This document shows, in pieces, positions 4,067 to 50,204 of a DNA stretch of 64,000 nucleotides. The notes under the pieces were generated by a model, which made no database searches, was not told the DNA's origin, and saw nothing but the letters and a program-made list of their open reading frames with translations. The stretch is from the NCBI GenBank assembly GCA_963668175.1, contig OY764159.1, forward strand, positions 4,416,001-4,480,000, in the 5' to 3' direction. Position numbers and translations under genes: made by a program. The stretch comes from Syntrophales bacterium (GTDB lineage: Bacteria; Desulfobacterota; Syntrophia; Syntrophales; PHBD01). How positions within the stretch are numbered: the first letter of the stretch is position 1; every line of letters begins with the position of its first letter.

Positions 4067-4741
4067 TCAGCTTTCAATAATTTTGCTCATTTGGCGGACA
4101 TATGTCCTTACCCTTTGGACGTATTGCCGATGGTTCTCCGTGAGTCCCCCTTTCACGGATTCCGGCCCGGCAAAGTAAGCGGAGAGGACATAATCCCAGA
4201 GAACGTCCTCGTCATACCCGGCCTTCCTGTAGCGCTCCCGCAGATCGCTCAAGATAGCCGCCGAAACAAGGATATTCAGGGATGGATCAAAGGCCTTCTC
4301 CCGCGATACCTTAAGGTTCAGTTTCTTAACATAAGCGTCCCAGGTGATGGGATGAATCTGCATGATACCCATGGCCTTCACCGGCGAGACGGCATCGATC
4401 GCGAAATTACTCTCTTTCTGCATCAATGCCAGAAAGAGGGTGATGGGAATGTTTGTTTTCTTAGACTGATTGATCACGGCCTGAGCAATCTCCATGGCGC
4501 TGTCCAGCTCCAGGTTCCTGTTGCGGAGTATTTTATAGATTTCCTCTTTAGCCTTGTATTCGGCATACCGTTCCTGTAACTCGGGATTGATCACTTCATT
4601 CAACTTACTCCTGACGTCGGCCAGGGTCTGATGAAACATGATGCCGACGATAAAAAGCGATGTGGCAAGAATACACAACGACGATACAATCCATTGTTTT
4701 CTTTTCGATATGTATTGTTCCCATAGTATTATTTGCGGCAT
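4067..4741 (-). CDS. Lytic transglycosylase (SLT domain) with N-terminal membrane anchor
   Basis: Catalytic ES motif (QKESNF), AMGIMQI, and AYFAG (variant of AYNAG). RBS GGAGG upstream. Confidence 0.85.
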   Translation of the reverse strand: MPQIILWEQYISKRKQWIVSSLCILATSLFIVGIMFHQTLADVRSKLNEVINPELQERYAEYKAKEEIYKILRNRNLELDSAMEIAQAVINQSKKTNIPITLFLALMQKESNFAIDAVSPVKAMGIMQIHPITWDAYVKKLNLKVSREKAFDPSLNILVSAAILSDLRERYRKAGYDEDVLWDYVLSAYFAGPESVKGGLTENHRQYVQRVRTYVRQMSKIIES

Positions 4742-5191
4742 TTGTGCACCTCCAACTTCTGTAGATTACTGACAATTGTCACGATAGCAACACTCATGTC
4801 GTCAATATCATTACAATTTTTACTATTTTTCCCCTTTTGAACGCCGGCCGGACTTTCAGGGCAAGACTCCACATTGAATAAAATGGGGGATGAATCAAGC
4901 AAGAAAAACGACGTACAAAGGGGAGAATGGCACTCTTGAAACAGAAAAGCCAATTAGTGCTTCACGACTATTTGATTTTTCATAGGGGTGGTAACTGTCC
5001 TCCAAACCATGTCATGGCAAATCCTCTAACACCTCTCCACGTAAAAAACTTAGGGGAGATGTTATCAGCCAGGGTGGCATTTATCATGGCAAAAATAAGC
5101 CTCGCCAAGAGCAATTTAGCCGAGATTCAATTCATTTGAGACTTTTTTTACCACTGTTGATGGGCAATCATCGGATAAAAATATATCCGAT

Positions 5192-5228
5192 AAAAAACCC
5201 GCCGTCAACCATAATGTGACCGGCGGGG
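5192..5228 (-). terminator. Rho-independent terminator downstream of cydAB
   Basis: Minus strand CCCGCCGGTCAC...TGACGGCGGG hairpin followed by TTTTTT. Confidence 0.7.
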
Positions 5229-5325
5229 GAGATTCATCGGCGGGGGAAATTCACATGCGGCCCGATTTCAGCAAGTTATGAAACCGTACTGCATGCATTT
5301 TTTTTGAAAACCCGAATGGACCGTA

Positions 5326-6354
5326 TTAATAGGCTTCCTTGTTGTCCGCAATGTCGGCTACAGTCACCTTGTGCCGGAAAATTCGGTATACCCACAACTG
5401 ATAGGCGATGACAATGGGGACAAAGAGAAGCGCAACAACCGTCATGATCTTCAGCGTATAGGGACTGGAAGACGAATTGAACGCTGTCAGGCTGTATGCC
5501 GGATCGATACTCGAAGGGATGAGATTCGGGTAGAGGCCGATCACCCCCGTGATGACGGTAAAGAATATAGCCAGACCGTTCGAGACGAAACTCCCGAGAT
5601 ATCGACCGCGTGACAGGAAAAATCTCGTTGTTATGACGGCAGCAACGACGATAAGGAGAATAACCAACCAAATTGGATTTTTGATGAAATTATCGTACAG
5701 ATGGGTTGCAAAAGCCGTATAGACGAGAAAAAGGATTAAAACGAGAAGCATGACGGACCAGGATTTGGAGGCGAAACGAACGGCCCGTTCGGCGATGCCG
5801 CCTTCGGTCTTAAAAGCGAGCCACAGAGAACCGTGCAGGAGGAAAAGCAGGACGAAAAGCATACCGGTCAGCAGGGCATACATATTGAGAAGTATGAAAA
5901 GATTGCCGTGGTAGCCGGCGCCGTCCATGGGCAACCCCCTGAAGATATTTCCAAAGGCAACGCCGAATAAAAGAGCGGGTATGAAGCTTCCGAAAAAAAT
6001 CGCCGCATCCCAACCCTTTTTCCAGCCCTGCCCTTCCTCCTTGCCCCGGAACTCAAAGGCAACGCCCCGGAAAATCAAGGCAAAAAGGATGATCAGCAGA
6101 GGGGTGTAGAGATAGCTGAACATCAGGGCGTAGGTCGTCGGAAAGGCGGCGAATGTGGCCCCTCCGGCGGTAACCAGCCATACTTCATTGCCGTCCCAGA
6201 CAGGGCCGATGGCGTTGATGATGATCCGCTTCTCATCGTCGTTTTCGGCCAAATAGTGATGGAGCATCCCCACCCCCAGATCGAATCCGTCGCTCATGAA
6301 ATAGACCGCCCAGAGGATACCCCAGAGAATAAACCACAGGATTTGGTATTCCAT
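5326..6354 (-). CDS. cydB: Cytochrome bd ubiquinol oxidase subunit II
   Basis: DGFDLGVG, GPVWDGNEVWL and RGVAFEFR motifs; downstream of cydA. Confidence 0.97.
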   Translation of the reverse strand: MEYQILWFILWGILWAVYFMSDGFDLGVGMLHHYLAENDDEKRIIINAIGPVWDGNEVWLVTAGGATFAAFPTTYALMFSYLYTPLLIILFALIFRGVAFEFRGKEEGQGWKKGWDAAIFFGSFIPALLFGVAFGNIFRGLPMDGAGYHGNLFILLNMYALLTGMLFVLLFLLHGSLWLAFKTEGGIAERAVRFASKSWSVMLLVLILFLVYTAFATHLYDNFIKNPIWLVILLIVVAAVITTRFFLSRGRYLGSFVSNGLAIFFTVITGVIGLYPNLIPSSIDPAYSLTAFNSSSSPYTLKIMTVVALLFVPIVIAYQLWVYRIFRHKVTVADIADNKEAY

Positions 6355-6369
6355 TCGTCTTCTCCTTCG

Positions 6370-7710
6370 CTAATAAGAGGCCGGACGGGAAGGTCCAGCT
6401 TCATCATCCGGACCCTTCCTTGCATATTTGGCCAGCAGGTAGATATCGATGATACCCAGCAATCCGTAAAAAAGGACAAAACCTATGAGAGACGTTGCAA
6501 CCTGGCCTACGCTGACGCTCTTGGAAACCGCATCGGAAGTCTTAAGAACCCCGTAGACGATCCAGGGTTGGCGGCCGACCTCGGCGACGACCCACCCGAG
6601 CTGAGCGGCAATATAAGGTAGCGGTATGGCAAGCATCATGGCCCTAAGAAAGAGGGGATACGATTCCAGCCGGTCTTTTCTCGACAGCCAAAACGCGGTC
6701 AATGACAGCAGGATGAAAAGGCTGCCAAGACCCACCATGGTTCTGAAACTGATAAATGTTTCCATGACCGGCGGTCTTTCCTCTTTCGGGAAATCCTTCA
6801 GCCCCTTAACCTCGGCCTTCCAGTCGCGATAGGCTAAAAAGCTTACCAAGCCGGGAATTCCTATCGCTTCGACGGCGTTGCGTTCGCCCTTGACGTCGGG
6901 GATAAGTAACAGGTTCAGGTCGACCCCTTTCTGGGTTTCCCAAAGGGATTCCATGGCGGCAAGTTTGGCCGGCTGCACCTTGGCCACCTCTCCTCCGTGA
7001 AAATCGCCGACGATAAAAACCAGCAGGGAACTCGCCAGGCCGAAAACGGCGGCCATGCGAAAAGAGGCCTTAAAGAGTGGGACATACTGCTTTTTCAGAA
7101 GATGGTAGGCTGAAATGCCCATGACAAAGAAGGACCCTACGACGGCACCGGCGAGAATCGTATGAAAGAACTTAAGCCAACTGTAGCTGCTCAAAAAGAA
7201 TGCCGCAAAATCGACCAGTTCCGCCCGTCCATTGCGGAGCACGTAACCGACGGGATGCTGCATCCAACCATTGGCCATCAGTATCCAGAGGGCCGACAGG
7301 TTGACGGCGATGGCGACGATCCAGATGGATGCGGCATGGACCTTCTTCGATACGCGGTTCCAGCCGAAAACCCACAGACCAATGAACGTCGATTCAAGGA
7401 AAAAAGCGAGCAAGGCCTCTATAGCAAGGGGCACGCCGAAGATGTCGCCGACATATTGCGAATAGGCAGCCCAGTTCATCCCGAACTGAAATTCCATAGT
7501 GATTCCCGTTACAACACCCAGCGCGAAGTTGATGAGAAAAAGCTTACCCCAGAATTTGGTCATCCTGAGGTACTTCTCGTCGCCCGTGGTGACATAGCGC
7601 GTCTCCATGGCGGCCACCAGGGGGGCGAGTCCCAGGGTCAATGGCACGAAAATAAAATGGAACATTGCCGTCATGGCAAACTGCAGACGACTCAAGGCCA
7701 AAACATCCAT
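6370..7710 (-). CDS. cydA: Cytochrome bd ubiquinol oxidase subunit I
   Basis: LSRLQFA..FHFIF, EFQFGMNW, ANGWMQHP, QPAKLAAME and GWVVAEVGRQPW. RBS GGAGG places the start at 7710. Confidence 0.97.
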   Translation of the reverse strand: MDVLALSRLQFAMTAMFHFIFVPLTLGLAPLVAAMETRYVTTGDEKYLRMTKFWGKLFLINFALGVVTGITMEFQFGMNWAAYSQYVGDIFGVPLAIEALLAFFLESTFIGLWVFGWNRVSKKVHAASIWIVAIAVNLSALWILMANGWMQHPVGYVLRNGRAELVDFAAFFLSSYSWLKFFHTILAGAVVGSFFVMGISAYHLLKKQYVPLFKASFRMAAVFGLASSLLVFIVGDFHGGEVAKVQPAKLAAMESLWETQKGVDLNLLLIPDVKGERNAVEAIGIPGLVSFLAYRDWKAEVKGLKDFPKEERPPVMETFISFRTMVGLGSLFILLSLTAFWLSRKDRLESYPLFLRAMMLAIPLPYIAAQLGWVVAEVGRQPWIVYGVLKTSDAVSKSVSVGQVATSLIGFVLFYGLLGIIDIYLLAKYARKGPDDEAGPSRPASY

Positions 7711-7862
7711 AGTCACCTCCTTGCATAGAATCACATCCCATGCGGTATTATTTTAAAACAGTTCTCCGAATATTACAAATCATTATACCTTTTTTTAACG
7801 CCATTATGATATAGACTTTCGTCATGAACCGAATTTTCATTTCGAGCTCAAGGATCGACATT

Positions 7863-8303
7863 ATGAGAAAAATGACCCCGCCGTTTAGAATCGTATTCCT
7901 GTTTGTTTTTATGACGGTTTTTCTTCTGCCGGCCTGTATGAAGGAAGGCGTGGTCATCACCAAGCCCGACGAGTACTCAAGGGCCTTTGAGGGCAACGAA
8001 AAGGTCGTCCTCAAGGCACTCGTTCAAGTATTTAAGGATAAAGGGTTTGGGGCTTCCTCAGTCAACCGCGAAAAGAAAGAGATCGAATCCACCTATCTCA
8101 TCCAGAACGGATGGAGATCCAAGACCATAGCCCGGGTGAAGCAGCTCAATTGGAAAGAAACGGACGTCACGCTGTCGGTTATCACCGAAAAGCAGGCGGG
8201 GGCCGGCTGGGAAATGAGGAGGCTCCTGCAAAAAGAGCAGTACGACAGCATTTTCGACGCCATAGAACTGCAAATCTACCAGGAAATGTACAAGACGGAA
8301 TAA
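7863..8303 (+). CDS. Hypothetical lipoprotein
   Basis: Hydrophobic signal peptide ending in the lipobox LPAC; divergent from cydA. Confidence 0.7.
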   Translation: MRKMTPPFRIVFLFVFMTVFLLPACMKEGVVITKPDEYSRAFEGNEKVVLKALVQVFKDKGFGASSVNREKKEIESTYLIQNGWRSKTIARVKQLNWKETDVTLSVITEKQAGAGWEMRRLLQKEQYDSIFDAIELQIYQEMYKTE

Positions 8304-11262: not shown

Positions 11263-13458
11263 CTACTTGGCCTTTGCCGCAGACAGGATCTTCTGCGGAG
11301 CAGCAACCCCCAGGCCCTTTCTGATCTTCTCCAGCATCGCCTTTTCTTTATCGCTGTATGCCCCGTCGACCAGTGCTATGCGTCTGGCTACTTCCAGGGC
11401 TTCCAGGCGATCTTCCGGATTCGGGATCATGGCGGCCAGGGCGGCCAGAGCCCTTTCCTCATCACACTGGAGGATTCTGGCCTGTGTTTTGACGATCCGC
11501 TTGAAAGTCGCGGGCCTGATCTTCTTCAACACCTTGTGCGTCTGGGCGATCCCTTCCGCAATCACATAATGCCTACGGCCGATGACGGGACTGGTCCTAG
11601 CCATGGCCATCATGACCCGGATCAGGCCTTCAGCCGTTCCCCCCTCCTCGAAGGCGAGGACACACGTCTTTTCCGCGGATGCTTCCGAAACGGCGGCCTG
11701 CTCCTTGTCCTCGGTCGGCATGAAGAAGTGATGGAGAAAGTCCTGACTGTAAATCCAGCGGAAGGCCTGTTCCTGAAAGCGATCCCGCGTGTCCCGATAG
11801 AGGTTCAGCATCTCTTCGATTGCAGAGGACATATTCTTTTCCAGCAAAACGAATGGATTGTCGGGCGAGACCGGGCGGCGGTTTTTCCTCGCTACAGAAG
11901 CTACGGAGGCCAGAGGGCGAAGCAGAGGATTCATATCGGAGATCATGTACCGCTGAGAACGCAACGGATGCATCCAGCGGATCATCTCCGCCGTCAATTC
12001 GGAAGACCACATCTGTACCCACGGGCGGAGAAATACACGATAGAGGTCGTCGTTGACGTTGGAGACGGCATTGACGACCTGAAAATCCTCTTCGTCTGCC
12101 GTGCCGTCGTCCATGGCGGCGATATGCTCCAGGGTCCGCTCCTCAAAAGCGGCCTTGAAATCCCCTGTCTTGACGTCGCCTTCGATAACCATCTCGTAGA
12201 GTCCCGGGGGGAGGTATTCGATCATGTCGAAGTTGCTGATGATCTCCTTGTGTTCCTTCTTGGCGACGCTGGCGGACACGAAGATCCCCAGATGTCCGAT
12301 CTCCTCATGCACGACGTAAATGATGACCTGTCCCCTCTCTTTGATCTCATCCACGGAACGATAAACCCGGGGAATCCAGTTAAGGGCCTGCTGAACCGGT
12401 GTAATATTGTCGCCCCGCGAGGCGAATACCAGAATCGGACTTTCGATATTCTTCAGACTGATCTTCTCTCCGCGCCGCAATTCCAGGTCGCCCTTTTCCA
12501 GCTTATTCCCGACGAAGAGATTGCTGACGATAAAGTGAATCTCCTCCGCCGTCATCATGAAGAATCCGCCCCACCACTTCTCAAAGGCGAGAAAGCGGTG
12601 TTCTTCGGTATCGAGCTGTGAATAGACGTGGTAGTTCTTGCTCCAGAGGGTATTGGCCGGATTAAGCGATTCAAAGTTGGATACCAGATGGGCCCCGTCG
12701 AATTTCCCGTTGCCCAGGTCGCTGAGGAGGCTGTTCATCCAAATTCCTCCCACCAGACCGCCCTTGTACCGCATGGGGTTGACGCCTTCCACGCCAGCCC
12801 AATAGGAAAGAGGGGCTCCGTTCAGAACCAGCGGACCGGTTATATCCGGCCGATCGGCACAGAGAAGGGCCGCCGCCCATCCCGCCTGACAATTGCCGAT
12901 GATGGCCGGGTTATCCGCATAAGGATGTCGATTGACGACTTCCTCGACGAAGCGCACTTCGGCGGCTTCCACATCGGCAAGCGTCTGACCGGGTATGGGA
13001 TCCGTATAAAACAGGATGAAATAGACGGGGTGGTTATGGTCGAGGGCCATGCCTATTTCCGAATCCCTTTTGGAGCCGCCTATTCCCGGCCCATGGCCGG
13101 CCCGGGGATCGATGATGATGATGGGCCTTTTGGGGAGTTCGGGCATATGCTTCAGGTCTCTCCTCCGCCGCTCCTCTTCTTCCTTCAGTTTACTTGCCTC
13201 TTTCCGGCGATCGGAGATACGGACCAGGGCATAATTAACGGGCCGCTTGAAGGTCCGTCCGTCCAGAATCATCTCGTAATTGAACGTCAGCACCGGCGGC
13301 TGCCCGCTTTTTATATGCTCGATGTAGGTGTTGCCCCGCTTACGCATAATATCCATAAAAATAATGGACCGCTGAAGCGCATCCACACTGTAATCGAAAT
13401 AAGCTTTCATGCTGTCTCCGAGTGCCTCGGCTTCCTTACCGACGTTCAATGGCTCCAT
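11263..13458 (-). CDS. DUF3141-family alpha/beta hydrolase (PHA-synthase-like) with C-terminal TerB-like helical domain
   Basis: DPRAGHGPGIGG, GNCQAG (Cys lipase box), FEKWWGG, SRGDNITP, GHLGIFVS; C-terminal ..IALVDGAYSDKEKAML.. Confidence 0.85.
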   Translation of the reverse strand: MEPLNVGKEAEALGDSMKAYFDYSVDALQRSIIFMDIMRKRGNTYIEHIKSGQPPVLTFNYEMILDGRTFKRPVNYALVRISDRRKEASKLKEEEERRRRDLKHMPELPKRPIIIIDPRAGHGPGIGGSKRDSEIGMALDHNHPVYFILFYTDPIPGQTLADVEAAEVRFVEEVVNRHPYADNPAIIGNCQAGWAAALLCADRPDITGPLVLNGAPLSYWAGVEGVNPMRYKGGLVGGIWMNSLLSDLGNGKFDGAHLVSNFESLNPANTLWSKNYHVYSQLDTEEHRFLAFEKWWGGFFMMTAEEIHFIVSNLFVGNKLEKGDLELRRGEKISLKNIESPILVFASRGDNITPVQQALNWIPRVYRSVDEIKERGQVIIYVVHEEIGHLGIFVSASVAKKEHKEIISNFDMIEYLPPGLYEMVIEGDVKTGDFKAAFEERTLEHIAAMDDGTADEEDFQVVNAVSNVNDDLYRVFLRPWVQMWSSELTAEMIRWMHPLRSQRYMISDMNPLLRPLASVASVARKNRRPVSPDNPFVLLEKNMSSAIEEMLNLYRDTRDRFQEQAFRWIYSQDFLHHFFMPTEDKEQAAVSEASAEKTCVLAFEEGGTAEGLIRVMMAMARTSPVIGRRHYVIAEGIAQTHKVLKKIRPATFKRIVKTQARILQCDEERALAALAAMIPNPEDRLEALEVARRIALVDGAYSDKEKAMLEKIRKGLGVAAPQKILSAAKAK

Positions 13459-13543
13459 AAATACTCCTTTGGTCTTCAGTGGTTATTGCTCATCATGACC
13501 GGGAATCCCTACATCCGATGGGTCGATGAGCTATGAATTAAGA

Positions 13544-13559
13544 TGCAAGATATATGCCC
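13544..13559 (-). promoter_or_regulatory. Sigma54 (-24/-12) promoter for the DUF3141 gene
   Basis: Minus strand GGGCATATATCTTGCA has exact GG-N10-GC spacing with TTGCA, about 85 bp upstream of the start. Confidence 0.65.
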
Positions 13560-13874
13560 TTCATATCCTTAATATCGCGACCATATCCGGCGCCGTTACA
13601 GCTGACGGCGACACCGCCTCAGGACGCGAAACCGGCAGGCTCTTCTTACGCATACCCTGTAGATCTATTTTTTGGCTATCATCTATATATCAGACTTGAG
13701 GCTTTATGACAAACGGGATGGGTGATTGTTTTACCTCCGAGGCAGAACAGACGGGCATGCAGAAATACATTCGATGACCGTCACGTGCAGCGGATGGTCC
13801 GGCGGCAAACCGCCGGGGCGATATCTCTTGACATTAGCTATAAATATTAATGCGTTGAGCAAGCCCTGATCCAA

Positions 13875-13905
13875 TGTCAACCATCAAGAGATTATATGGT
13901 TGACA
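13875..13905 (+). promoter_or_regulatory. BirA (biotin repressor) operator overlapping the -35 of the bio operon promoter
   Basis: TGTCAACCAT-N11-ATGGTTGACA perfect 10-bp inverted repeat (TGTCAACC-N15-GGTTGACA). The right arm contains TTGACA, and a candidate -10 TATAGC lies at 13924. Confidence 0.85.
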
Positions 13906-14005
13906 AAAGTCCTCTCCAGTTGGTATAGCGCCATCTCTCGGTGGTGTCTGCTTGACGATCAGGACACCGTCGAGGCTGAAATACCCTTTGTCCGGGAGCG
14001 ATGGA

Positions 14006-15376
14006 ATGGAATCTTTACGACAAGATAACAAGCAGTTGGCAATCAACGACCGGCAGTATATTTGGCATCCCTTCACGCAAATGCAGCAGTATACGGCGGA
14101 GCAACCGGTCATCATAAAAGAGGGGTACGGTTGCATCCTGAAGGACATTGACGGAAATGAATATATCGACGGTGTATCCTCCCTCTGGACCAATGTCCAT
14201 GGTCACCGGAAAGCCCATCTCGATCAGGCCGTCAAAAATCAGATCGATCTGATCGCCCACTCCACCCTCCTCGGGCTTTCCAACGTACCGGCCATCCGGT
14301 GCGCGGAAATGCTCGTCCGCATAGCACCACCGGGATTGACCCGCGTATTTTACTCCGACAGCGGCTCGACGGCCGTCGAGATCGCCTTGAAGATAGCATT
14401 CCAGTATCATCAGCAAGCCCAAGACGGCCTTCGCGAGAAGAAGAAGTTCATCTCTCTCGTGAATGCCTATCACGGCGATACGATAGGGTCCGTCAGTGTC
14501 GGCGGCATCGATCTGTTCCACCAGGTGTACCATCCTTTGCTTTTTGATTCGTTTAAGGCGGAGTCCCCTTACTGTTACCGCTGCCCTTTCGGGAAATCTT
14601 ACCCGGACTGCAAAATGGAATGTTTTTGTCAGCTCGAAGATGTGGTGAAAGAGCATGCCCACGAGGTCTGCGCCCTGGTGATGGAACCCCTGGTTCAGGG
14701 GGCCGCGGGGATGTTGATGCAGCCTCCGGGATATTTGAAGAAGGTCCGCGACCTATGCACGGCCAATCGCATCTTCCTGATTGCGGATGAGGTCGCCGTG
14801 GGTTTCGGCAAGACGGGCAAAATGTTCGCCTGCGAACACGAAGGCGTGACGCCGGACATCATGACCGTGGCCAAGGGCATTACCGGCGGCTATCTCCCCT
14901 TAGCGGCCACGCTTGCCACGGAAGAGATCTACAGGGGATTCCTCGGCGAGTACGACGAGCTCAAGACGTTTTTCCACGGCCATACGTATACGGGCAACCC
15001 CCTGGCCTGTGCCGCGGCCATCGCCAATATGGAAATATTCGCGCAGGAAAAGGTCCTGGAAAAATTACAGGAAACCATCAGGCATCTCGCCGAACGGCTC
15101 GAGGCTTTCCGGTCGCTTGCCTGCGTCGGTGATATTCGCCAGAAAGGGATCATGGTCGGCATCGAACTGGTAAGCGAAAGGGAATCGAAAGAGCCCTTTC
15201 CGCTCAAAGACAACATCGGCCATCAGGTCACCCTGGAAGCAAGAAAACAAGGACTCATCATCCGTCCTCTCGGAGGAATCATCGTCATGATGCCGCCCCT
15301 GGCTGTGTCCATATCCGAAATCGACCGGATCTGCGACATCACCTACGACGCCATCAAAAAGGTCACCGAACGGTAA
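14006..15376 (+). CDS. bioA: Adenosylmethionine-8-amino-7-oxononanoate aminotransferase
   Basis: [36 protein letters not shown] lysine in [16 protein letters not shown]. Confidence 0.97.
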
Positions 15377-15389
15377 ACGCGGGGACCCT

Positions 15390-15677
15390 ATGGAAATCAC
15401 CGGCACTTTCTTTTTCGATCCCGCCGACCGTATCTATCGGGACCATTTTCCTTCCCATCCGGTCGTACCGGGAACCCAAATCGTCCGCGCCTTCATGGAG
15501 GCCGTCCGAAGAGGGATACCGACGGCAAATCGTTTCGTCATCGACCATTTCAGGTTCCGGCATTTTATCGTCCCCGGGGAGTATTCTTACCGTATTCGGC
15601 CGGAAGAGAAGGGGCTTTCGTGTGCGCTGTTCGATCATGATCGTATCGTTGTAACCGGAAGGATGATCGTATCGTGA
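15390..15677 (+). CDS. Hotdog-fold 3-hydroxyacyl-ACP dehydratase subunit (His-bearing, FabZ/ApeI-like)
   Basis: DHFPSHPVVPG motif and FRHFIVPG strand; 95 aa. Confidence 0.75.
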   Translation: MEITGTFFFDPADRIYRDHFPSHPVVPGTQIVRAFMEAVRRGIPTANRFVIDHFRFRHFIVPGEYSYRIRPEEKGLSCALFDHDRIVVTGRMIVS

Positions 15678-16432
15678 ATATGACGTTTTCAGGAAAGCAT
15701 GCCCTCGTTTTGGGCGGAAGCTGCGAATTGGCGCTTGCTCTGGCTGATCGTTTCATAGAGACCGGTATCCGCCCCTTCTTAACCTTCAGAAACGAAGAAG
15801 GCAGGCAGCGAATCGAAGAACGCCTCGCTTCGTCTCAGGGGAAATTCGAGAACGTCTATTTCGATTTTGGGAAACCGGATACGATCAGTACATTATTCGC
15901 CGCCGTGGGTGAAGAGCTCGATTACCTCGTCGATTTCGCCCAGGGCAACTATGAGAGCTTTGTCGCGTCCGCAGACGGGGACGCGGTCGCCCGGTATATC
16001 CACGAAAATGTGGCCGTGCGCTCCCGACTTCTGAAAGAAGCGGGCCGTCTCATGTTGGCCAGAAAAAAAGGACGCATGGTGTTTGTTTCCTCGACAGCGG
16101 CTCTTTGGCCGAATCATGGACAGGGCTTCTATGCAGCTACAAAACTGGCAGCGGAAGCCCTCTACAAAAACATGGGCTTGGAACTGGGGAGACGAGGCGT
16201 CACGGCCGTTACCCTGAGGCCTGGCTATGTATATGCCGGACGCGGCCGGTCGTTTATCCAAAAAAACGAAATCGAAGTCATGCACAGAATACCGACGGAA
16301 AAAATACTGACCGCGGAAGAGATCGCGTCAGCCATCATGTTTCTCCTTTCGGACGGAGCCGCCGGCTTTAATGCTACGGAATTAACCATGGACGGCGGTC
16401 TCACGGCCGGCAAACAACTTCGGAGGATTTAA
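15674..16432 (+). CDS. SDR 3-oxoacyl-ACP reductase-like protein (divergent FabG)
   Basis: ALVLGGS Rossmann start, VSS, YAATK catalytic motif, LRPG, MDGG. Confidence 0.85.
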   Translation: MNMTFSGKHALVLGGSCELALALADRFIETGIRPFLTFRNEEGRQRIEERLASSQGKFENVYFDFGKPDTISTLFAAVGEELDYLVDFAQGNYESFVASADGDAVARYIHENVAVRSRLLKEAGRLMLARKKGRMVFVSSTAALWPNHGQGFYAATKLAAEALYKNMGLELGRRGVTAVTLRPGYVYAGRGRSFIQKNEIEVMHRIPTEKILTAEEIASAIMFLLSDGAAGFNATELTMDGGLTAGKQLRRI

Positions 16433-16433
16433 G

Positions 16434-16799
16434 TTGGATCCATTCGTACAGATCAAAGAAATACTCATCAACCTTCTGGATATCGAAGGCCATGAGATCA
16501 CGCCGGAAACATACTTAATCAGGGACCTGGGCGCCGAATCGATCGATCTTCTGGAACTTGCCGTGGCCATCAGCGCCGAGTGCGGGGTCCAGGTGAACGA
16601 CAACGATATATTTCTCAAACCGTTGCGTCTTTATCTCGAGCAGGCCAAGGAAAGCGGCATCGATCCCGGAACCTACCTGGCGGAAAAATTCCCGTTTCTG
16701 ACAGGCCCGAGAATCAGGGAAATCCTGGCCGATATCCACCTGGGACCGGTGCTTAAAGTGAAGGATCTCACCGGTTACGTAGCCTGGAAGACATGTTGA
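16434..16799 (+). CDS. Acyl carrier protein, enlarged (121 aa)
   Basis: LIRDLGAESIDLLEL phosphopantetheine-site motif and C-terminal KVKDL. Confidence 0.85.
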   Translation: MDPFVQIKEILINLLDIEGHEITPETYLIRDLGAESIDLLELAVAISAECGVQVNDNDIFLKPLRLYLEQAKESGIDPGTYLAEKFPFLTGPRIREILADIHLGPVLKVKDLTGYVAWKTC

Positions 16800-16901
16800 A
16801 GGGCGATAACGGATGCGCAGGAGTTTCAGCGGGGCCGATCAGCGAATCGAAGGCGTTTGTCTGAAGAATTGGATTCATAAAGTGCCCGGCATCGTAAGCT
16901 T

Positions 16902-17534
16902 ATGTCGATTTTAGATGAACTGACCACACAAAGAAGAAGCATCCGCACCTACAAGGCGGATATGCCCCCTGAAGAGTGGATCTCGGTGATGCTCCGGTGC
17001 GCTGCCAAAGCGCCGTCGCCCACAAACAGCCGCCCCGTCAGGTTCGTCCGGATAAAATCCCACGAGAAGCGTGCCTCCCTTCACCGGGCGATGCACCAGG
17101 GCTATCAAAACTTGCTGGAAGCGGCCAAGCAATGCGAGAAACCCCGGAGAAAAACGAATATCGTCAACGCCTACTGGCGGTACTCGGAATTTATCAACAA
17201 TGCCCCTCTGCTTTTCGCCGTCGGCGTTAAAACCGACGGTAACGGTTTTTCCAAAAGACTCTTCGAGGCCGAACTCATTTCCCGGGACGACAGAACGGAC
17301 ACCGATCTCGATATCACCGTCGGCCTGGCCTTGAAAGGGTTTCTCCTGAAAGGCACCGAACTCGGTCTCGGCATGTGCATCCTTACGGCGCCGCTCGTTT
17401 TTGCCGGCGATATCGACAAAATCCTCGGACTTTCCGGCATCCGCATCAAGTGCCTGGTAACGGCAGGCTATCCCCATGAAACGCCGCCCTACCTGGAAAG
17501 AATGCAGGCGTCCGATATGCTGTTGGAAATATAA
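16902..17534 (+). CDS. Nitroreductase-family flavoprotein
   Basis: RRSIRTY, APSPTNSRP, ELGLGMC and AGYP FMN-binding motifs. Confidence 0.88.
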   Translation: MSILDELTTQRRSIRTYKADMPPEEWISVMLRCAAKAPSPTNSRPVRFVRIKSHEKRASLHRAMHQGYQNLLEAAKQCEKPRRKTNIVNAYWRYSEFINNAPLLFAVGVKTDGNGFSKRLFEAELISRDDRTDTDLDITVGLALKGFLLKGTELGLGMCILTAPLVFAGDIDKILGLSGIRIKCLVTAGYPHETPPYLERMQASDMLLEI

Positions 17535-18746
17535 ATGGACAGACGCGTCGTCATCACATCCATGGGCGTTGTTTCCTCCCTGGGGGACACTCCGGAAAAG
17601 ATCATGGCGAGCATTCGGAATGAAAAGGTCTCTTTTGCAAGACCGGCATTCGACAACGAAATCGTCATCAGCCCCATACGGCATTTTGTCCTCAAGGATT
17701 ATATCGGACGCTTCAAGAACGCCCGATATCTGATACGAGGCGCCCAACTGGGTGTGGCCTCCGCCGTGGTGGCCTTCAAGAGGGCCAACCTTGACGAGGG
17801 CATGACGGCCGACTGCGGCCTCTTTGTGGGAACGGGCCCGAACATGGACATCAGCGGTGAATTCCCCGATTTCGCCAGGGGCAAGCTGGATACGGACAAC
17901 CTGAACGCCCTCTGGATGCTGCGTTTTCTCCCCAACACGATGGCCTCGACGATTGCACAACTGACCGGAACGCACGGAGAGAATAGCACGATCACCACGG
18001 CCTGCGCCGCCTCCCTGCATGCCTTGGGCGAGGCGTTCCGGAAAATCAGGGACGGGTATCTTGATCTGGCCCTGGCCGGCGGCGGAGAGTCACGTATCAA
18101 TCCCATCGGTATCCTCGGTTATAAAAAAGCGCGGGCCTTAAACAGCGGCCCCGGGGCCCCGGAAAAGGCATCGCGGCCCTTCAACGAAGACAGATCGGGA
18201 TTCGTTCCGGGAGAAGGAGGCGCTTTTTTCCTCCTGGAAGACCTGGAACACGCCCGGAAGCGCAAGGCGGATATCTATGGCGAAATTTGCGGCTTTGGAA
18301 ATTCCCTGGACGGCGTAACCATGACCGCGCCCGATGCCGAAGGCATATGGGCCGAAAAGGCGATATTTTCGGCGTTCCATGAAGCAGGGGTTGCCCCGGC
18401 AGACATCGACCTTGTCTGCACGCACGGCACGGGGACCTGTCTCAACGATGCCATGGAGCATACCTTGATCAAGCGAATATACGGAACCCACAAACCCTAC
18501 CTGCTGGCGCTCAAATCATGGATCGGCCACCTATCGGCGGCCTGCGGGGCCGTTGAATCCGCCCTGCTTCTGATCTGCATGCAAAACGGCTATCTTCCGG
18601 AGATCCGCAATCTCAGCGCCCCCTGTGCGGATGACCTTAACTTCGTCCGGGAAGCCAGGACCTTCACGCCTCGGACGGCCGTCATCCAGAATTTCGGCTT
18701 CGGCGGCCAGAACGGCGCCCTGGTGATCAAGTCATGGAAAGAATAG
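17535..18746 (+). CDS. Beta-ketoacyl-ACP synthase (FabF-like)
   Basis: Cys-His-His triad: TACAAS, HGTGT, KSWIGH; also GEGG and NFGFGG. Confidence 0.92.
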   Translation: MDRRVVITSMGVVSSLGDTPEKIMASIRNEKVSFARPAFDNEIVISPIRHFVLKDYIGRFKNARYLIRGAQLGVASAVVAFKRANLDEGMTADCGLFVGTGPNMDISGEFPDFARGKLDTDNLNALWMLRFLPNTMASTIAQLTGTHGENSTITTACAASLHALGEAFRKIRDGYLDLALAGGGESRINPIGILGYKKARALNSGPGAPEKASRPFNEDRSGFVPGEGGAFFLLEDLEHARKRKADIYGEICGFGNSLDGVTMTAPDAEGIWAEKAIFSAFHEAGVAPADIDLVCTHGTGTCLNDAMEHTLIKRIYGTHKPYLLALKSWIGHLSAACGAVESALLLICMQNGYLPEIRNLSAPCADDLNFVREARTFTPRTAVIQNFGFGGQNGALVIKSWKE

Positions 18747-19171
18747 TTATCCATACGGGCCTCGATCATTTCGTCATGGTGGATGCGATCGACGGCATGG
18801 ACGAAAACCAGATCGACGGCGAGGTCACTCTTGAAAACGCCGATCCGACCCTGCTTCTTGAATCCCTGGCGCAATTGGCGGGCCTGCATATCCGCCATTC
18901 CCTCGACTTCACCAAACACGCCTTCCTGGTAAGGATCTCGGGAGCACCGCTTCCTGAGGAGAAATCCCTAACCGGTACGTACAGCCTGCGGGGAAAGCTG
19001 GTCAGCCGCAGCGAGGAGGCCTTCACCTACCGTTTGGAGGCCGGCGGGAAAAATGTTCCCGTCGTCCGCGGGCAGTTTCTCTTCGGCACGGTCGATTATA
19101 ATGACGATTTCCAAAAGGATATTTTACAGAAGCATTATCGAAAGGTCCTGGCATGCGCGAAGAGGAAATAA
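18734..19171 (+). CDS. Hotdog-fold dehydratase subunit (Glu-bearing, ApeP-like)
   Basis: FVMVD and LLESLAQLAG helix motif; lacks HFP. Confidence 0.65.
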   Translation: MERIVIHTGLDHFVMVDAIDGMDENQIDGEVTLENADPTLLLESLAQLAGLHIRHSLDFTKHAFLVRISGAPLPEEKSLTGTYSLRGKLVSRSEEAFTYRLEAGGKNVPVVRGQFLFGTVDYNDDFQKDILQKHYRKVLACAKRK

Positions 19172-20298
19172 AGGAAAGACTCAAAGTGCAGAAGCAGGCC
19201 GGCCTCTATCGGGACCCCCCGGAGATAACCCGCCGGGCCGGTAAATTTGTTTATATCAAGGATCGGAAATATCTGAATTTCGCTTCCAACGACTACCTCG
19301 GCCTCGCTTCTTCCCGGGAAGTACGGAAAAGGGTCGCGGCAAATTTTGCGAAATTCGGTACATCGTCTTCATCCTCGCGGCTCGTGTCCGGCAATTACGG
19401 AATCATCTCCCGGGCGGAAGAAGCCTATGCCCGGCACTTCGGCTACGACCAGGCCCTCTTCTTCCCCAGCGGCTATCAGGCCAACATCGGCCTTATTTCC
19501 GGATTGTTCGACCAGGAAGACACCATTATCTTCGACAAGCATATCCATGCCAGCAGCGTCAAGGGAATAGGCATGAGCCGCGCCGCGTTTTTCGGCTACA
19601 ATCACAACAACATGCCGCACCTGGCCAGACGTCTTGAGGCCAACGCAAACAGACGCCCGGCCGTGCTTACGGAAGCCCTTTTCAGCATGGACGGCGATCT
19701 GCTCGACGTGGAAGGGCTCGACCGTCTCAAGAAGCAATACGACTTTTTAACCATCGTCGACGAGGCCCATTCCTTCGGTGCCCTGGGCCCGGGAGGCCGC
19801 GGCATAGGACGGACGGTGGCGGATGTTGCCGTCGGCACCTTCGGCAAGGCCTTCGCACTCTTCGGGGCCTTTGTCCTCATGCCGGAGGGCTTCAAGGAAT
19901 ATCTCTACAATTTTTCCTCGCCCCTCATCTATTCGACCACATTGCCGGAAGCCCATGCGGCCTCGGCGATAGATATTCTGGATATTGTGCAAAGCAGCGG
20001 CCACAGACGGAGAAAGCTCCGCCATATCAGCGGCCGCATGAAAGATCGGCTGCAACGGGAGGGATTTAAAACCTACGGGGATGCCCACATCCTTGCCGTC
20101 GAAATCGGCGCGGAGGAATTGGCGGTCGCCGTCGCCGGAAGGATGAGAGAAAGGGGCATCTTCGTATTCCCGGCCAGATTTCCAACCGTTCCGCTTCATA
20201 AGGCCATTTTAAGGATCAGCATGACCGCACGGCATACGGATCGAGATGCCGCTTGCTTTATCGACACACTCAAGGAGGCCATCCATTGCGAGAATTAA
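19153..20298 (+). CDS. bioF: 8-amino-7-oxononanoate synthase
   Basis: NFASNDYLGL, SRLVSG, SGYQAN, HAS, FSMDGD, DEAH, GTFGKA. Confidence 0.96.
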   Translation: MREEEIKERLKVQKQAGLYRDPPEITRRAGKFVYIKDRKYLNFASNDYLGLASSREVRKRVAANFAKFGTSSSSSRLVSGNYGIISRAEEAYARHFGYDQALFFPSGYQANIGLISGLFDQEDTIIFDKHIHASSVKGIGMSRAAFFGYNHNNMPHLARRLEANANRRPAVLTEALFSMDGDLLDVEGLDRLKKQYDFLTIVDEAHSFGALGPGGRGIGRTVADVAVGTFGKAFALFGAFVLMPEGFKEYLYNFSSPLIYSTTLPEAHAASAIDILDIVQSSGHRRRKLRHISGRMKDRLQREGFKTYGDAHILAVEIGAEELAVAVAGRMRERGIFVFPARFPTVPLHKAILRISMTARHTDRDAACFIDTLKEAIHCEN

Positions 20299-20975
20299 TC
20301 TTTGTTACAGGTACGGACACGGGCGTGGGCAAAACGGTCCTGTCGCTCATCCTCATGCAGTATTTCTTCAGGAAAGGGAAAAAGCCGTTCTATCTGAAGC
20401 CGGCACAGACCGGATGTATCGATCCTTACGATACCGACAGCGACGCCCGGTTTATTTACAGCCACATACCGCAGTTGGGCGGACAGAATCCCGCCGACTC
20501 GGTGATCCTGTGTTTCAAGAATCCCAAAGCGCCTTTTTTTGCCGCCAGGGATGAAGGAAAAGTCCTCGACATGGAGAAAATATTCAAGGTCATCTCAGAT
20601 CGTCACCGGACTTCCGATCCCTTGATCGTCGAGGCGGCCGGAGGGCTCATGGTCCCCATGACGGACCAGATGCTTGTCGTGGATTTCGTCAAGCTGCTCA
20701 ATGCCAGGCCCCTGCTTGCCGCACGCGCGGGACTGGGCACGATCAACCACACCCTCCTCTCCTTTGAAAGCCTGCGGGCGCGTGGGATACAACCGGCCGG
20801 CATCGTCTTCATGGACTCGGGTCCGTCACCCACCGACAAGGAAATGATTGCGGAAAACATCGAAGCCGTCAGACAATTTTCCGGGATAACCGTCGCCGGT
20901 ACCATCGGGGCCATCGGCGATTTCTCCAACCCGGGAGACGACTGCTTCCGGCCCCTGGAGAAGATCTACGGATAA
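20286..20975 (+). CDS. bioD: Dethiobiotin synthase
   Basis: FVTGTDTGVGKT, KPAQTG, EAAGG, LGTINH. TTG start with AGGAGG RBS. Confidence 0.96.
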   Translation: MRELIFVTGTDTGVGKTVLSLILMQYFFRKGKKPFYLKPAQTGCIDPYDTDSDARFIYSHIPQLGGQNPADSVILCFKNPKAPFFAARDEGKVLDMEKIFKVISDRHRTSDPLIVEAAGGLMVPMTDQMLVVDFVKLLNARPLLAARAGLGTINHTLLSFESLRARGIQPAGIVFMDSGPSPTDKEMIAENIEAVRQFSGITVAGTIGAIGDFSNPGDDCFRPLEKIYG

Positions 20976-21229
20976 TCTCGGGCAGCAAGCCCGTATTCAC
21001 TTTTAACTTCAGCCATTAGTCGTTGCGGGACGGACAGGAGCATTTGTCATATCAAGGCACCAAAGATGTGGCGGAAAACGGAAGCCCATGTTATAGGTTA
21101 TCAGACAATCGGCACGACAGACCTGTCTGGAGATGACATGTCCGGGGCAGTTTGCGGTACGGTTGGATTTGTTTTCCGTTGTAATAATGGACGGATATTG
21201 TCATCCCAAAGCCCGAGAACACATATTTT

Positions 21230-22093
21230 ATGACCTATCGTTATCGTCTTACCGAAGATGACATAGCCGGATTCAAAGACTGGTTTCTGAACTATACGGC
21301 ATCCTTTCATTCGGGCGCCGAACATGACGAGCAAAGCTACGTCCTCAAGAAGAGACATTCCTTCAAAGTCGCCCGGGCGATAAGGATTGTCGGCGAGTCA
21401 CTGGGCCTGAATCCTAACGATCTCCGGGTGGCCGAGGCGATGGCGTTACTGCACGATGTGGGTCGATTTGAACAGTATGCGCGATACAGAACATTCGCCG
21501 ATGCCAAGTCGGTGGACCATGCCGATCTGGGCGTCCAGGTCCTTCGTGAGTGCCGAATCCTGGATACCCTGGGACAACAGACCCGGGATATTATTCTGAA
21601 GGCCATTTCTTACCATAACCGACTCAGTATTCCCGCCGACGAGACGGAGGAATGCCTCTTTTTCAGCCGGCTCTTACGGGACGCGGACAAAATCGATATT
21701 TTTCGCGTCGCCACCTGTTATTACCTGGACAAGGACTCGGAGCGCAATGCCGCCATTGAGCTCGACCTGCCCGATTCCGACGAAATCTCCGGAGAGATCA
21801 TCCGATGCCTGGAAGAAGGCCGTCTCGTCCGGAGCGGGCTGTTAAAATCTCTGAATGACTTTAAGCTCCTCCAGATGGGTTGGGTTTACGATATGAATTT
21901 TCTGCCCGCCCTGCAACTGATCCGGGAAAAAGGCTACATCGAAGCCATTCGCCTGGCTCTCCCGGCTTCAGACGATGTTGACAGGGCATATGCCCGGGTC
22001 GCGGCATATCTTCATGAACGGCTGAACGGCGGGCAGAAGCTTGTCAATCGGGAACCGTGCGGGTCGGCGAAGGAGGCCGGTTTCTTACGGTGA
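21230..22093 (+). CDS. HD-domain metal-dependent phosphohydrolase
   Basis: H..., LLHDVGRFEQY, DHA, YHN and RDADKID. Confidence 0.85.
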   Translation: MTYRYRLTEDDIAGFKDWFLNYTASFHSGAEHDEQSYVLKKRHSFKVARAIRIVGESLGLNPNDLRVAEAMALLHDVGRFEQYARYRTFADAKSVDHADLGVQVLRECRILDTLGQQTRDIILKAISYHNRLSIPADETEECLFFSRLLRDADKIDIFRVATCYYLDKDSERNAAIELDLPDSDEISGEIIRCLEEGRLVRSGLLKSLNDFKLLQMGWVYDMNFLPALQLIREKGYIEAIRLALPASDDVDRAYARVAAYLHERLNGGQKLVNREPCGSAKEAGFLR

Positions 22094-25521: not shown

Positions 25522-26325
25522 ATGCCGAAAATCAGGATACGGGACATCGATATCCATTACGAATCGGCCGGCGAAGGTCCGTCCCTCGTCTTTATCCACG
25601 GCCTCGGTTCGAGCACGAGGGACTGGGAAAAGCAGGTCGCCTTCTTTTCTTCCCGATACCGTGTTGTCACCTTTGATTGCCGCGGCCACGGCCAATCGGA
25701 CAAGCCCCGGGGGCCGTACAGCGTCCCGATGTTTGCCGAAGACGCCGCAGGGTTGATAAAATCCCTGGGCATCGCCCCCGCTCACATCGTGGGGCTCTCC
25801 ATGGGGGGTATGATCGCCTTTCAGCTGGCCGTCTCGGAGCCCGATCTCGTCAAGACCATGGTGATTGTCAACAGCGGTCCGGCAATGGTTCTTCGATCAT
25901 ATAAAGAAAAATGGATGTTCTTCAAAAGGAGACTCATCGCGCGTTTCCTTGGAATGCGCATGATGGGGAAGTTTTTGGCACAGATTCTCCTTCCCGAGCC
26001 TGAACAGGAACCGCTAAGGAAGATTCTTGTCTCGCGATGGTCCGAAAACGACCGTCGGGCCTATTTAGATTCGATGAAGGCCCTTTTCGGATGGAGCGTC
26101 ATGGATAAAGTGAAGGCGATCCGTTGCCCCGCCCTGATCGTTGCGGCCGATCAGGACTATACGCCGGTTGCCGCCAAGGAGGCCTACGCGGCCCTGATGC
26201 CTCACGCGGAAGTCGTTGTCATCCATAAGTCCCGTCATTTAACGCCTATCGACCAACCCATACCGTTCAATGAGGCCGTTATGGCTTTCCTCCTTCGTTA
26301 CAGCAATTCGGGAACAGAGGCATGA
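25522..26325 (+). CDS. Alpha/beta hydrolase (enol-lactonase-like)
   Basis: HGLG, DCRGHG, nucleophile elbow GLSMGG, then Asp and His. Confidence 0.88.
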   Translation: MPKIRIRDIDIHYESAGEGPSLVFIHGLGSSTRDWEKQVAFFSSRYRVVTFDCRGHGQSDKPRGPYSVPMFAEDAAGLIKSLGIAPAHIVGLSMGGMIAFQLAVSEPDLVKTMVIVNSGPAMVLRSYKEKWMFFKRRLIARFLGMRMMGKFLAQILLPEPEQEPLRKILVSRWSENDRRAYLDSMKALFGWSVMDKVKAIRCPALIVAADQDYTPVAAKEAYAALMPHAEVVVIHKSRHLTPIDQPIPFNEAVMAFLLRYSNSGTEA

Positions 26326-38643: not shown

Positions 38644-39798
38644 TCAATCCTTGTTCGAAACGACGAGGGAAGTGCAATTCCCGCCAAAACCGAAATAGTT
38701 GAACATCAGGGTGGCGTTTCCCATGGTCAGGTTGTCCGTTACCGGCGTTATGCCCAATTCTTCGTCGCTCGTCTGAAAACCGGGAGTCGCGGGCAGGAAG
38801 CCGTTTTTGACCGCCTCGGTGACAATGATCATCTCGATGACCCCCGAAGCCCCGACCGTATGGCCGACATAAGGTTTGATGCAGGTAACCGGGGGCATTC
38901 GGTTTCCGAAAACAGACTTCATACCGTTGCACTCCGTTCGGTCGTTGCTGTCGCTCCCGGTGGCATGGGCCTTGACGGCGTCGATGTCCACGATTTCTAC
39001 GCCCGCATTGGCCATCGCCTGACCAATGACTTCGGCGATCCAACTTCCCTCGATCGTGTGGCTGGTGACGTTAAACGTGTCGCACAGATTCGCCCCCCCT
39101 CGAATGCGGAAACCGTTTTCGTCCCCGCTTCCCGTATCAAGAATCAGCGCACCGCACCCTTCCCCCATGATAATGCCGTCCCGGTATTTATCGAACGGTT
39201 TGTAGAACGTCTGCGACATGAGTTTAAGGGCTTCGAACCCGTAAAAGCCGGTATTGTTGAACAGGTCATACCCGATGACAAGAGCCCTCTCGATCATGCC
39301 CATTTTGATCATTTGAGAGGCATAGAGGATCGCATTGGCGCTGGACGTACAGGCCGTCGTAAATGTGTAGCACGGCCCGGTGATTCCGAAGCGTCTCGTC
39401 ACTTCCGCCACGAGGGACCCATACCCCAGCGATGCATTGGAAAAATAGTGCGTGCCGTTGACGTCCGATTTTTCATAGTAACTTTCATAGATGGGAATAT
39501 CGATGGACGTGGAACCGAAAAAGACGGCCAGGTTCTTCGTTTCGGATTCTGAAAGGCCCGCGTCCTCTATAGCCCTGGCGATCGTATCGAAGAGGACATC
39601 GTAAAAGAAGGTCTCGGCGCTCCCTCCCCGATTCCGGCGAATACGGTAATAGGGCCTCGAATAGGGAAGCTGTACATGGCTTAAAGGGATGTTCTCCGTG
39701 CAAACATATTTGTCCTTCACGCGGGCAACGACCTCTCCGATATCTTCGCCGAGAGAACAGACAATCGCCCTGCCGCGTATGAAAACATTCCTGTCCAA
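38644..39798 (-). CDS. Beta-ketoacyl-ACP synthase
   Basis: TACTSS, HATGS, KPYVGH, FGFGG; TTG start. Confidence 0.92.
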   Translation of the reverse strand: MDRNVFIRGRAIVCSLGEDIGEVVARVKDKYVCTENIPLSHVQLPYSRPYYRIRRNRGGSAETFFYDVLFDTIARAIEDAGLSESETKNLAVFFGSTSIDIPIYESYYEKSDVNGTHYFSNASLGYGSLVAEVTRRFGITGPCYTFTTACTSSANAILYASQMIKMGMIERALVIGYDLFNNTGFYGFEALKLMSQTFYKPFDKYRDGIIMGEGCGALILDTGSGDENGFRIRGGANLCDTFNVTSHTIEGSWIAEVIGQAMANAGVEIVDIDAVKAHATGSDSNDRTECNGMKSVFGNRMPPVTCIKPYVGHTVGASGVIEMIIVTEAVKNGFLPATPGFQTSDEELGITPVTDNLTMGNATLMFNYFGFGGNCTSLVVSNKD

Positions 39799-39802
39799 GC
39801 GA

Positions 39803-50203: not shown

Positions 50204-50204
50204 A

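Follow-up and report, generated by a model that had tools for sequence, protein, structure and literature searches.

A comparative-genomic study recognised five fatty-acid-type genes within the BirA-regulated biotin (bio) operons of Desulfovibrio, and proposed a novel pathway to pimeloyl-CoA (CoA, coenzyme A) (Rodionov 2004; PMC545781). Genetic data have since been obtained by randomly barcoded transposon sequencing (RB-TnSeq): in the absence of biotin, Desulfovibrio vulgaris needs DVU2558–DVU2565 together with an unlinked nitroreductase gene, DVU1220 (Trotter 2023; PMC10102598). The same paper reports similar clusters with a nitroreductase-like gene in other Desulfobacterota—S. fumaroxidans MPOB is named, as is Desulfobacter vibrioformis DSM 8776—and describes the biochemistry as still to be defined. 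Here, we analyse a stretch of 64,000 nucleotides from the genome of a Syntrophales bacterium (contig OY764159.1, positions 4,416,001–4,480,000; hereafter, the window), in which six genes resembling those of a type II fatty acid synthase (FAS) are embedded in a biotin operon. These six genes encode two hotdog-fold subunits (hd1 and hd2), a short-chain dehydrogenase/reductase (SDR), an acyl carrier protein (ACP), a nitroreductase-fold flavoprotein and a ketosynthase (KS). Our reading, which we put forward with good confidence, is that the operon is repressed by BirA, and that the six-gene cassette supplies BioF with pimeloyl-ACP built on a carrier of its own, replacing the BioC/BioH, BioW, BioI or BioZ routes.

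The original prediction for this DNA had noted that FAS-like genes in bio operons were known from comparative genomics, in agreement with PMC545781, and that the pathway had yet to be worked out biochemically; no biochemical work was found in the full-text literature searched. Its term "uncharacterised" holds with regard to biochemistry, but is too broad otherwise: a published prediction (Rodionov 2004) and mutant data (Trotter 2023) exist.

The window operon resembles that of D. vulgaris Hildenborough in that two FabZ-like genes, an SDR gene, an ACP gene and a FabF-like KS gene are found among the bio genes (in D. vulgaris, the second FabZ-like gene is an unannotated open reading frame, ORF). 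The two systems also share a BirA site, the lack of bioC, bioH and bioW, the implication of a nitroreductase, and a proposed elongation with a free carboxylate that would lead to pimeloyl-ACP. They differ in that the window's nitroreductase gene lies inside the operon, while bioB and birA are located elsewhere in the genome. The link between them runs via D. vibrioformis DSM 8776, one of the strains named in PMC10102598. The locus in this strain (L109) has the same hd1-SDR-ACP-nitroreductase-KS-hd2-bioF order, and its hd2 product is 38% identical to that of the window; unlike in the window, bioA and bioD do not adjoin this string, and the organism belongs to another bacterial order.

As in the BioC/BioH pathway of Escherichia coli, we propose that two FAS-type rounds would convert a malonyl thioester into pimeloyl-ACP for use by BioF. 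Unlike in E. coli, neither the O-methyltransferase nor the esterase was found in the genome, and the enzymes and ACP are private rather than housekeeping. A further point of comparison is BioZ, a FabH-like 3-oxoacyl-ACP synthase III (KAS III) of alpha-proteobacteria that takes a glutaryl-CoA primer; glutaryl priming by BioZ was reportedly described by Hu and Cronan in 2020. Features in common with BioZ are a biotin-dedicated condensing enzyme encoded in a bio operon and, as proposed here, a free omega-carboxylate. In contrast to BioZ, the window KS is of the FabF type with Cys-His-His, and is accompanied by its own ketoreductase, dehydratase, ACP and candidate enoyl reductase.

ORF and family scans of the window place the nine genes, bioA-hd1-SDR-ACP-nitroreductase-KS-hd2-bioF-bioD, on the + strand at positions 14006–20975, with most neighbours overlapping (Table 1). 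All nine, together with their coordinates and tight packing, are as originally predicted. From bioA to KS, successive junctions consist of a 13 nt gap, a 4 nt overlap, a 1 nt gap, a 102 nt gap (positions 16800–16901, between ACP and nitroreductase), and an abutting TAA-ATG (the nitroreductase stop and KS start codons). From KS to bioD, adjacent genes overlap by 13, 19 and 13 nt. The spacer between ACP and nitroreductase varies among related loci: it measures ~2–30 nt in most (2 nt in L030), and ~530 nt in L033. The bioA start codon is preceded by GGGAG, and the TTG codon of bioD is situated 8 nt past an AAGGAGG. For the divergent bioF product, TIGR00858 outranks all other models, and the genome contains a single copy of the gene. 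The remaining biotin genes, bioB and birA, form a divergent pair away from the operon, at 1.5576–1.5596 Mb of the host genome.

Table 1. Features of the biotin operon and its operator (positions are those of the window)
Feature	Position	Strand	Description
BirA-type operator	13875..13905	.	Perfect palindrome, TGTCAACC-N15-GGTTGACA
bioA	14006..15376	+	Adenosylmethionine-8-amino-7-oxononanoate transaminase; TIGR00508, 549 bits (cut-off 405)
hd1	15390..15677	+	Short hotdog subunit, 95 aa; FabZ-type catalytic His (H19)
SDR	15674..16432	+	Presumed 3-oxoacyl-ACP reductase; adh_short families
ACP	16434..16799	+	Dedicated ACP, 121 aa (usual length ~80); PP-binding over residues 6–60
nitroreductase	16902..17534	+	Candidate enoyl-ACP reductase; PF00881, 100 bits
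KS	17535..18746	+	FabF-like elongating ketosynthase, two-domain; bio-specific clade
hd2	18734..19171	+	Hotdog subunit, 145 aa; FabZ-type catalytic Glu (E43)
bioF	19153..20298	+	8-amino-7-oxononanoate synthase, divergent; TIGR00858, 327 bits (under the 426 cut-off)
bioD	20286 (TTG) or 20253 (longest ORF)..20975	+	Dethiobiotin synthase; TIGR00347, 134 bits (cut-off 83)

The BirA-type operator precedes the ATG of bioA by 100 nt, and agrees with the TTGTAAACC-N14/15-GGTTTACAA BirA consensus given in PMC545781. The operator pattern matches once in the window and in none of 100 shuffles. Across the 4.57 Mb genome there are just two matches, the second of which lies between bioB and birA. Since the operator is present at this operon and at bioB/birA alone, the nine-gene unit can be placed in the biotin regulon. 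Of 97 related loci, 32 carry the palindrome, and upstream sequence is missing for many of the rest; in six cases the copy was checked against gene coordinates, and all six lie upstream of the first gene of the cluster. Scans of positions 13400–21400 for sigma-70 promoters (3 promoter-like sites vs 5.8 expected) and terminators (10 terminator-like sites vs 9.3 expected) were uninformative. The operator itself holds a TTGACA followed at 18 nt by TATAGC, a pair that falls outside the patterns accepted by the promoter scan.

The host genome is a single contig, scored as 100% complete, and was scanned for the other routes to pimelate. No gene product in this genome exceeds the cut-off for BioC (best score 60 bits vs 185) or BioH (84 bits vs 207), and there are zero matches to BioW, BioG and P450 (BioI). 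Three FabH-like genes are present, none of which is linked to bio genes. Two of these are divergent, match generic KAS III models only, and adjoin genes for a thiamine diphosphate (ThDP) enzyme and an acyl-CoA dehydrogenase. The matches of the genome's FabH-like genes include no BioZ-specific model, which formally leaves room for a BioZ-like activity. The original prediction that alternative routes are missing is thus borne out for BioC, BioH, BioW and BioI—for bioC and bioW, which it had singled out for a genome search, nothing over the cut-off was obtained—and holds with less certainty for BioZ. A housekeeping acpP-fabF pair is found separately, at 0.669–0.670 Mb (FabF, 623 bits), and hence the cassette constitutes an extra, private set.

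Two further observations concern the same gene families. FabF-like KS genes number nine in the genome, and a single one scores over the FabF cut-off; three others cluster at 0.731–0.737 Mb, and one adjoins a FabH-like gene at 4.019–4.023 Mb. An alpha/beta hydrolase gene in the window (25522–26325, +) was considered as a candidate BioH and rejected, its score of 67 bits (cut-off 207) being generic. The gene is found beside one for a LysE exporter, 4.5 kb downstream of bioD, and is probably unrelated to biotin.

The active site of FabZ is built from a His of one subunit and a Glu of the other, and a FabZ chain carries both residues. Neither hd1 nor hd2 does so. The hd1 product shows a weak match to the FabA/FabZ family (E 1.5e-4, below the cut-off) with a clear FabZ motif, DHFPxxPVVPG; it is through this motif that its profile aligns with FabZ structures (E 1.7e-5), and 6qsr_A is hit as well (E 6.5e-4). 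Its H19 is invariant (60/60), and at position 33—the site of the FabZ Glu—36 of 60 sequences have His, five (that of the window included) have Arg, and one has Glu. The hd2 product lacks an HFPxxPxxPG motif, and neither Pfam nor NCBIfam yields a match at E ≤ 0.001; it contains an invariant E-x-x-A-Q helix, and E43, H52 and R54 are each conserved in 84 of 84 sequences. Its AlphaFold2 model is a hotdog (predicted local distance difference test, pLDDT, 86.9), for which Foldseek gives FabZ 3d6x as the best hit (template modelling (TM) score 0.68–0.72); 6qsr_B comes seventh (0.62–0.65), no better than FabZ. Alignment of the hd1 and hd2 profiles with hhalign gives no detectable homology (probability 2%), which argues against a recent duplication.

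Given that a FabZ site draws on both subunits, an hd1:hd2 pair would have exactly one complete site. Complex prediction for this pair returned an ipSAE interface score of 0.92 in three runs, while the best of three controls scored 0.02; 116 of 157 solved complexes attain this ipSAE mark, as do 2 of 215 mismatched pairs. Contacts agree by 100% between runs, and the partner pLDDT is 91. In the predicted interface, hd2 E43 contacts hd1 residues 29–30, and hd1 residues 12–23 are included. The models hence predict that hd1 and hd2 form a heterodimer whose single FabZ-type site is composite. This split-dehydratase architecture has a precedent, in that ApeI/ApeP is a heterodimeric dehydratase with a single active site (PMC8041823). 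Like ApeI:ApeP (6qsr), the window encodes two unlike hotdog chains, one short and one long, in a type II cluster, and a single complete His/Glu site is predicted for the pair. Unlike ApeI:ApeP, for which the product is a polyene, the cassette would make a saturated dicarboxylate, and sequence similarity between the two systems is marginal. We found no mention of a split dehydratase in a biotin cassette in the literature searched.

Over residues 4–59, the dedicated ACP aligns with its canonical counterparts, GAESID containing the serine. Its final helix is similar to canonical helix IV, and some 45 extra residues lie between the two parts. The AlphaFold2 model (pLDDT 93.8) has seven helices: residues 3–15, 36–50 and 56–59, an inserted set at 64–74, 78–85 and 91–103, and a final helix at 109–120. 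The three-helix insert is thus placed between helices III and IV. Foldseek recovered no solved ACP with such an insert; only the canonical core was matched, with nothing at E ≤ 0.001 and a best query-normalised TM-score of 0.55. E35, S36, R93 and D111 are conserved in 65 of 65 sequences, and R65 in 63.

The KS product scores 286 bits against the fabF model TIGR03150, missing its cut-off of 493.75. On alignment with Bacillus subtilis FabF (4ls5), the Cys (TACAAS), His (HGTGT), Lys-x-x-x-His (KSWIGHL) and GFGG motifs are all in register, and a comparison with BioZ, which has the FabH-like KAS III fold, gives a negative outcome: the window KS matches FabF/FabB models. In a quickly built tree, in which the outgroup branches are long, 71 KS proteins from bio loci fall on one side of a branch (Shimodaira–Hasegawa-like approximate likelihood ratio test, SH-aLRT, 99), opposite the genome's FabF and six paralogues. 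Residues that are invariant in the clade and differ from FabF include K61, Y65, R68, P102, W127, S186, R187, Y196, W329 and R358. Two of these coincide with a known structural element: in the 4ls5/4ls6 alignment, P102 falls at FabF Ile108 and Y196 at Phe202, a pair that a preprint terms the acyl pocket's "back gate" and at which, according to the same source, changes shift chain-length specificity (10.1101/2021.02.13.431092). R187 aligns with FabF position 193, nine residues ahead of the gate. We take this position to face the acyl pocket. As judged from these sequences, the KS pocket is clearly remodelled; a role for the remodelled residues in carboxylate binding is our hypothesis.

The SDR product scores 99 bits against adh_short_C2 and 83–95 bits against FabG models, under their cut-offs of 222–332; S139, Y153 and K157 are present in 60 of 60 sequences, and several arginines are invariant too. 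The nitroreductase scores over the PF00881 gathering cut-off (23.5 bits). Its flavin mononucleotide (FMN) motif, R-x-S-x-R (R11, S13 and R15), is present in 56 of 57 sequences, and C159 and C184 are also kept. Among named models, those closest to it are BluB and the C-terminal domain of FbiB (the latter with E 3e-12 and 47 bits vs a cut-off of 250); among structures, it comes closest to 3gfa, a putative nitroreductase, to iodotyrosine deiodinase, and to FbiB (4xom).

The distribution of the cassette was examined in 41 genomes from the host's own family and order, the host genome included. hd2 is present in 12 and bioD in 18 of these genomes; all 12 occurrences of hd2 are among the 18 genomes with bioD, vs 0 among the 23 without. 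BioC was found in 0 of the 41, and BioW in one. The gene order of the window recurs in 11 loci from these relatives. All nine genes are whole (a match over about 85% of the query) in seven loci, and the other four show hd2 in two pieces (one locus), an absent SDR (two) or cuts by a contig end (two). The SDR-less loci, L032 (G031) and L037 (G028), have otherwise complete cassettes, with no SDR gene between hd1 and ACP. A wider scan with the hd2 profile, using one genome per species, gave 88 confirmed relatives; 80 loci were retained, and the complete nine-gene string is found in 34 of them. Among the 60 loci holding both ACP and KS, a nitroreductase gene lies between the two in 51 and is absent there in nine. 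Gene order is kept across Syntrophales/Syntrophaceae, Syntrophobacter(aceae)/Syntrophobacterales, Desulfobacterales (D. vibrioformis DSM 8776 and Desulfocicer vacuolatum DSM 3385 among them), Desulfarculales, and a metagenome-assembled genome (MAG) of SAR324.

Several variant loci were encountered along the way. L135 (G378) and L136 (G213), two of the hd2-bearing genomes in a sample of 401 from the phylum, carry a divergent hd1-SDR-ACP-KS-hd2-bioF cluster without a nitroreductase gene; their KS and hd2 products are 39–40% and 25–30% identical to those of the window, respectively, and the ACP insert seems shorter. This cluster may be a Desulfovibrio-like form. L045 (G040:C123, positions 4289–7939) is a reduced bioA-long ACP-bioF-bioD cluster; a search of its 10.3-kb contig, to which the search was confined, found no KS, hotdog, SDR or nitroreductase gene. 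That the ACP alone is kept between bioA and bioF fits with a role as the carrier of BioF's substrate. Finally, L041 (G019) and L042 (G039) consist of a solitary cassette-type bioD, 58–60% identical to that of the window, with no further bio or cassette gene within the surrounding 15–20 kb.

The proposed cycle would proceed as follows. S36 of the ACP would receive the phosphopantetheine arm, the housekeeping transacylase would charge the carrier with malonate, and the KS would condense a dicarboxylic primer—its omega-carboxylate left free—with malonyl-ACP. The 3-oxo group would then be reduced by the SDR, the product dehydrated by the hd1:hd2 heterodimer (with H19 from hd1 and E43 from hd2), and the enoyl thioester reduced by the nitroreductase-fold flavoprotein. 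Two such rounds would take a malonyl primer to pimeloyl-ACP, from which BioF, BioA and BioD would make dethiobiotin, with BioB ending the pathway. Within this scheme we infer the substrates, the number of rounds, the role of the reductase and the binding of carboxylate by arginines. In its general form—a dedicated elongation cycle without methyl masking, on a dedicated ACP—the scheme was already contained in the original prediction, and it gains support from the conserved residues, the operator, the co-occurrence pattern and the separate housekeeping pair. A bolder extension is that masking by protein replaces the methyl ester of BioC, with ACP R65 and R93, KS P102, Y196 and R187, and hd2 H52 and R54 holding the carboxylate, and that the flavoprotein represents a new class of enoyl-ACP reductase; we put this forward tentatively, and consider it rather doubtful as a whole.

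As to the primer, we lean towards malonyl. A glutaryl thioester extended by one malonyl unit—the logic of BioZ with a FabF-type KS, and the rest of the cycle unchanged—strikes us as unlikely, and a primer that is neither malonyl nor glutaryl as similarly so. Gene content cannot separate the malonyl and glutaryl models, because a single round uses the same four activities. In syntrophs, glutaryl-CoA would derive from the catabolism of benzoate or fatty acids, and acyl-CoA dehydrogenases of the genome do weakly match models for glutaryl-CoA/pimeloyl-CoA dehydrogenases; moreover, a glutaryl primer requires no malonyl-acylated KS, and BioZ is a precedent for glutaryl priming. Set against these points are the type of the KS (FabF-type enzymes take acyl-ACP primers, while CoA primers are the domain of the FabH type), the lack of a glutaryl-CoA:ACP transferase in the cluster, and the occurrence of the same cassette in lineages that differ in their catabolism. 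A quite different possibility is that the FAS-like genes serve an unrelated lipid or polyketide, and that their bio neighbours are accidental. The genome certainly offers a backdrop for this, with its nine FabF-like KS genes and other polyketide synthase (PKS)/FAS-like clusters, one of them in the window. Yet the genes are threaded in between bioA and bioF, where stop codons overlap with starts, a single BirA-type operator stands ahead of them all, their order is kept in dozens of genomes, hd2 occurs only where bioD is present, and D. vulgaris mutants of the homologous genes require biotin (PMC10102598). We regard an accidental association as very improbable.

Enoyl reduction is our best guess for the nitroreductase-fold flavoprotein on account of its position, its conservation, and the fact that this is the sole activity otherwise missing from a full cycle; on balance, we favour it by a little. 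The competing explanation is that a housekeeping enzyme of the FabI/FabK type reduces the enoyl group, the flavoprotein being a redox helper or catalysing some other flavin-dependent step. We know of no nitroreductase-fold enoyl-ACP reductase, and the gene is missing from nine of the 60 loci and from the divergent L135 and L136. Since those nine clusters manage without one, another enzyme can evidently serve in its stead. The two options are both kept open in PMC10102598. At odds with a mere helper role are the biotin requirement of the D. vulgaris nitroreductase mutant described in that paper, the position of the gene between ACP and KS in 51 of 60 loci, where in the window it abuts the KS start, and the gap that its removal would leave in the cycle. 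The FbiB C-terminal domain, the nearest named model (albeit a weak match), reduces a C=C bond adjacent to a carboxylate. Taken together, a FabI/FabK-type reductase seems possible, but is the less favoured of the two.

A number of points weigh against the pathway that we propose. The cluster contains neither an acyltransferase nor a priming (FabH-type) KS, which leaves loading and the first condensation unexplained, and a malonyl-acylated KS would be unusual chemistry. In the dehydratase, the hd2 profile retrieves a single FabZ among sequences of the Protein Data Bank (PDB), at a non-significant E of 0.76; the fold call for hd2 therefore rests on its model, and the heterodimer score may stem from a resemblance of the pair to 6qsr and to hotdog dimers already solved. 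Sampling of the phylum also gave few carriers: in 401 genomes drawn evenly from it (with up to nine candidates per genome scored), hd2 was found at E ≤ 1e-5 in at least eight. The SDR is absent from two of the 11 relatives' loci and the nitroreductase from the ACP–KS gap in nine of 60, so the cassette is not always self-sufficient. According to PMC10102598, the nitroreductases of the clusters are only distantly related to DVU1220. Lastly, no later biochemistry on any member of the cassette was found in the full-text literature, in which subscription journals are scarcely covered.

Elsewhere in the window, a second acyl-chain cluster occupies positions 38644–51566, mostly on the - strand. Its KS genes lie at 38644–39798 and, as an overlapping pair that may encode a KS and chain-length factor (KS/CLF), at 47710–49023 and 48953–50428. 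The cluster further contains genes for two adenosine monophosphate (AMP)-ligases (46196–47713 and 50205–51566), an enoyl-CoA hydratase (45355–46188), an aromatic amino-acid lyase (42430–44064, +) and an ABC-2 exporter (40072–42379). In outline, it resembles a type II PKS or an aryl-polyene-like system that uses an aromatic starter. On the other side, divergent from the bio operon, is a gene for a DUF3141 protein (11263–13458, -; 784 bits), which ends in a TerB-like domain and shows weak similarity to polyhydroxyalkanoate (PHA) synthases.

The supply of pimelate in anaerobes without BioC, BioH, BioW, BioI or BioZ is among the last open steps of biotin synthesis. The locus described here is a further copy, from a Syntrophales-type genome, of a pathway that has already been predicted and genetically supported, the nitroreductase variant included, and it leaves the published general picture unchanged. 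What is added, by inference, is the split hotdog dyad, the ACP insert, the remodelled KS gate and the position of the nitroreductase, and with them sharper tests. The locus is a complete candidate copy of the pathway, with six accessory genes in one operon. Because the probable enoyl reductase is encoded in the operon, rather than elsewhere as in D. vulgaris, it offers a better template for reconstitution. If elongation with a free carboxylate does indeed work in this way, the cassette would provide a short way to C7 dicarboxylates.

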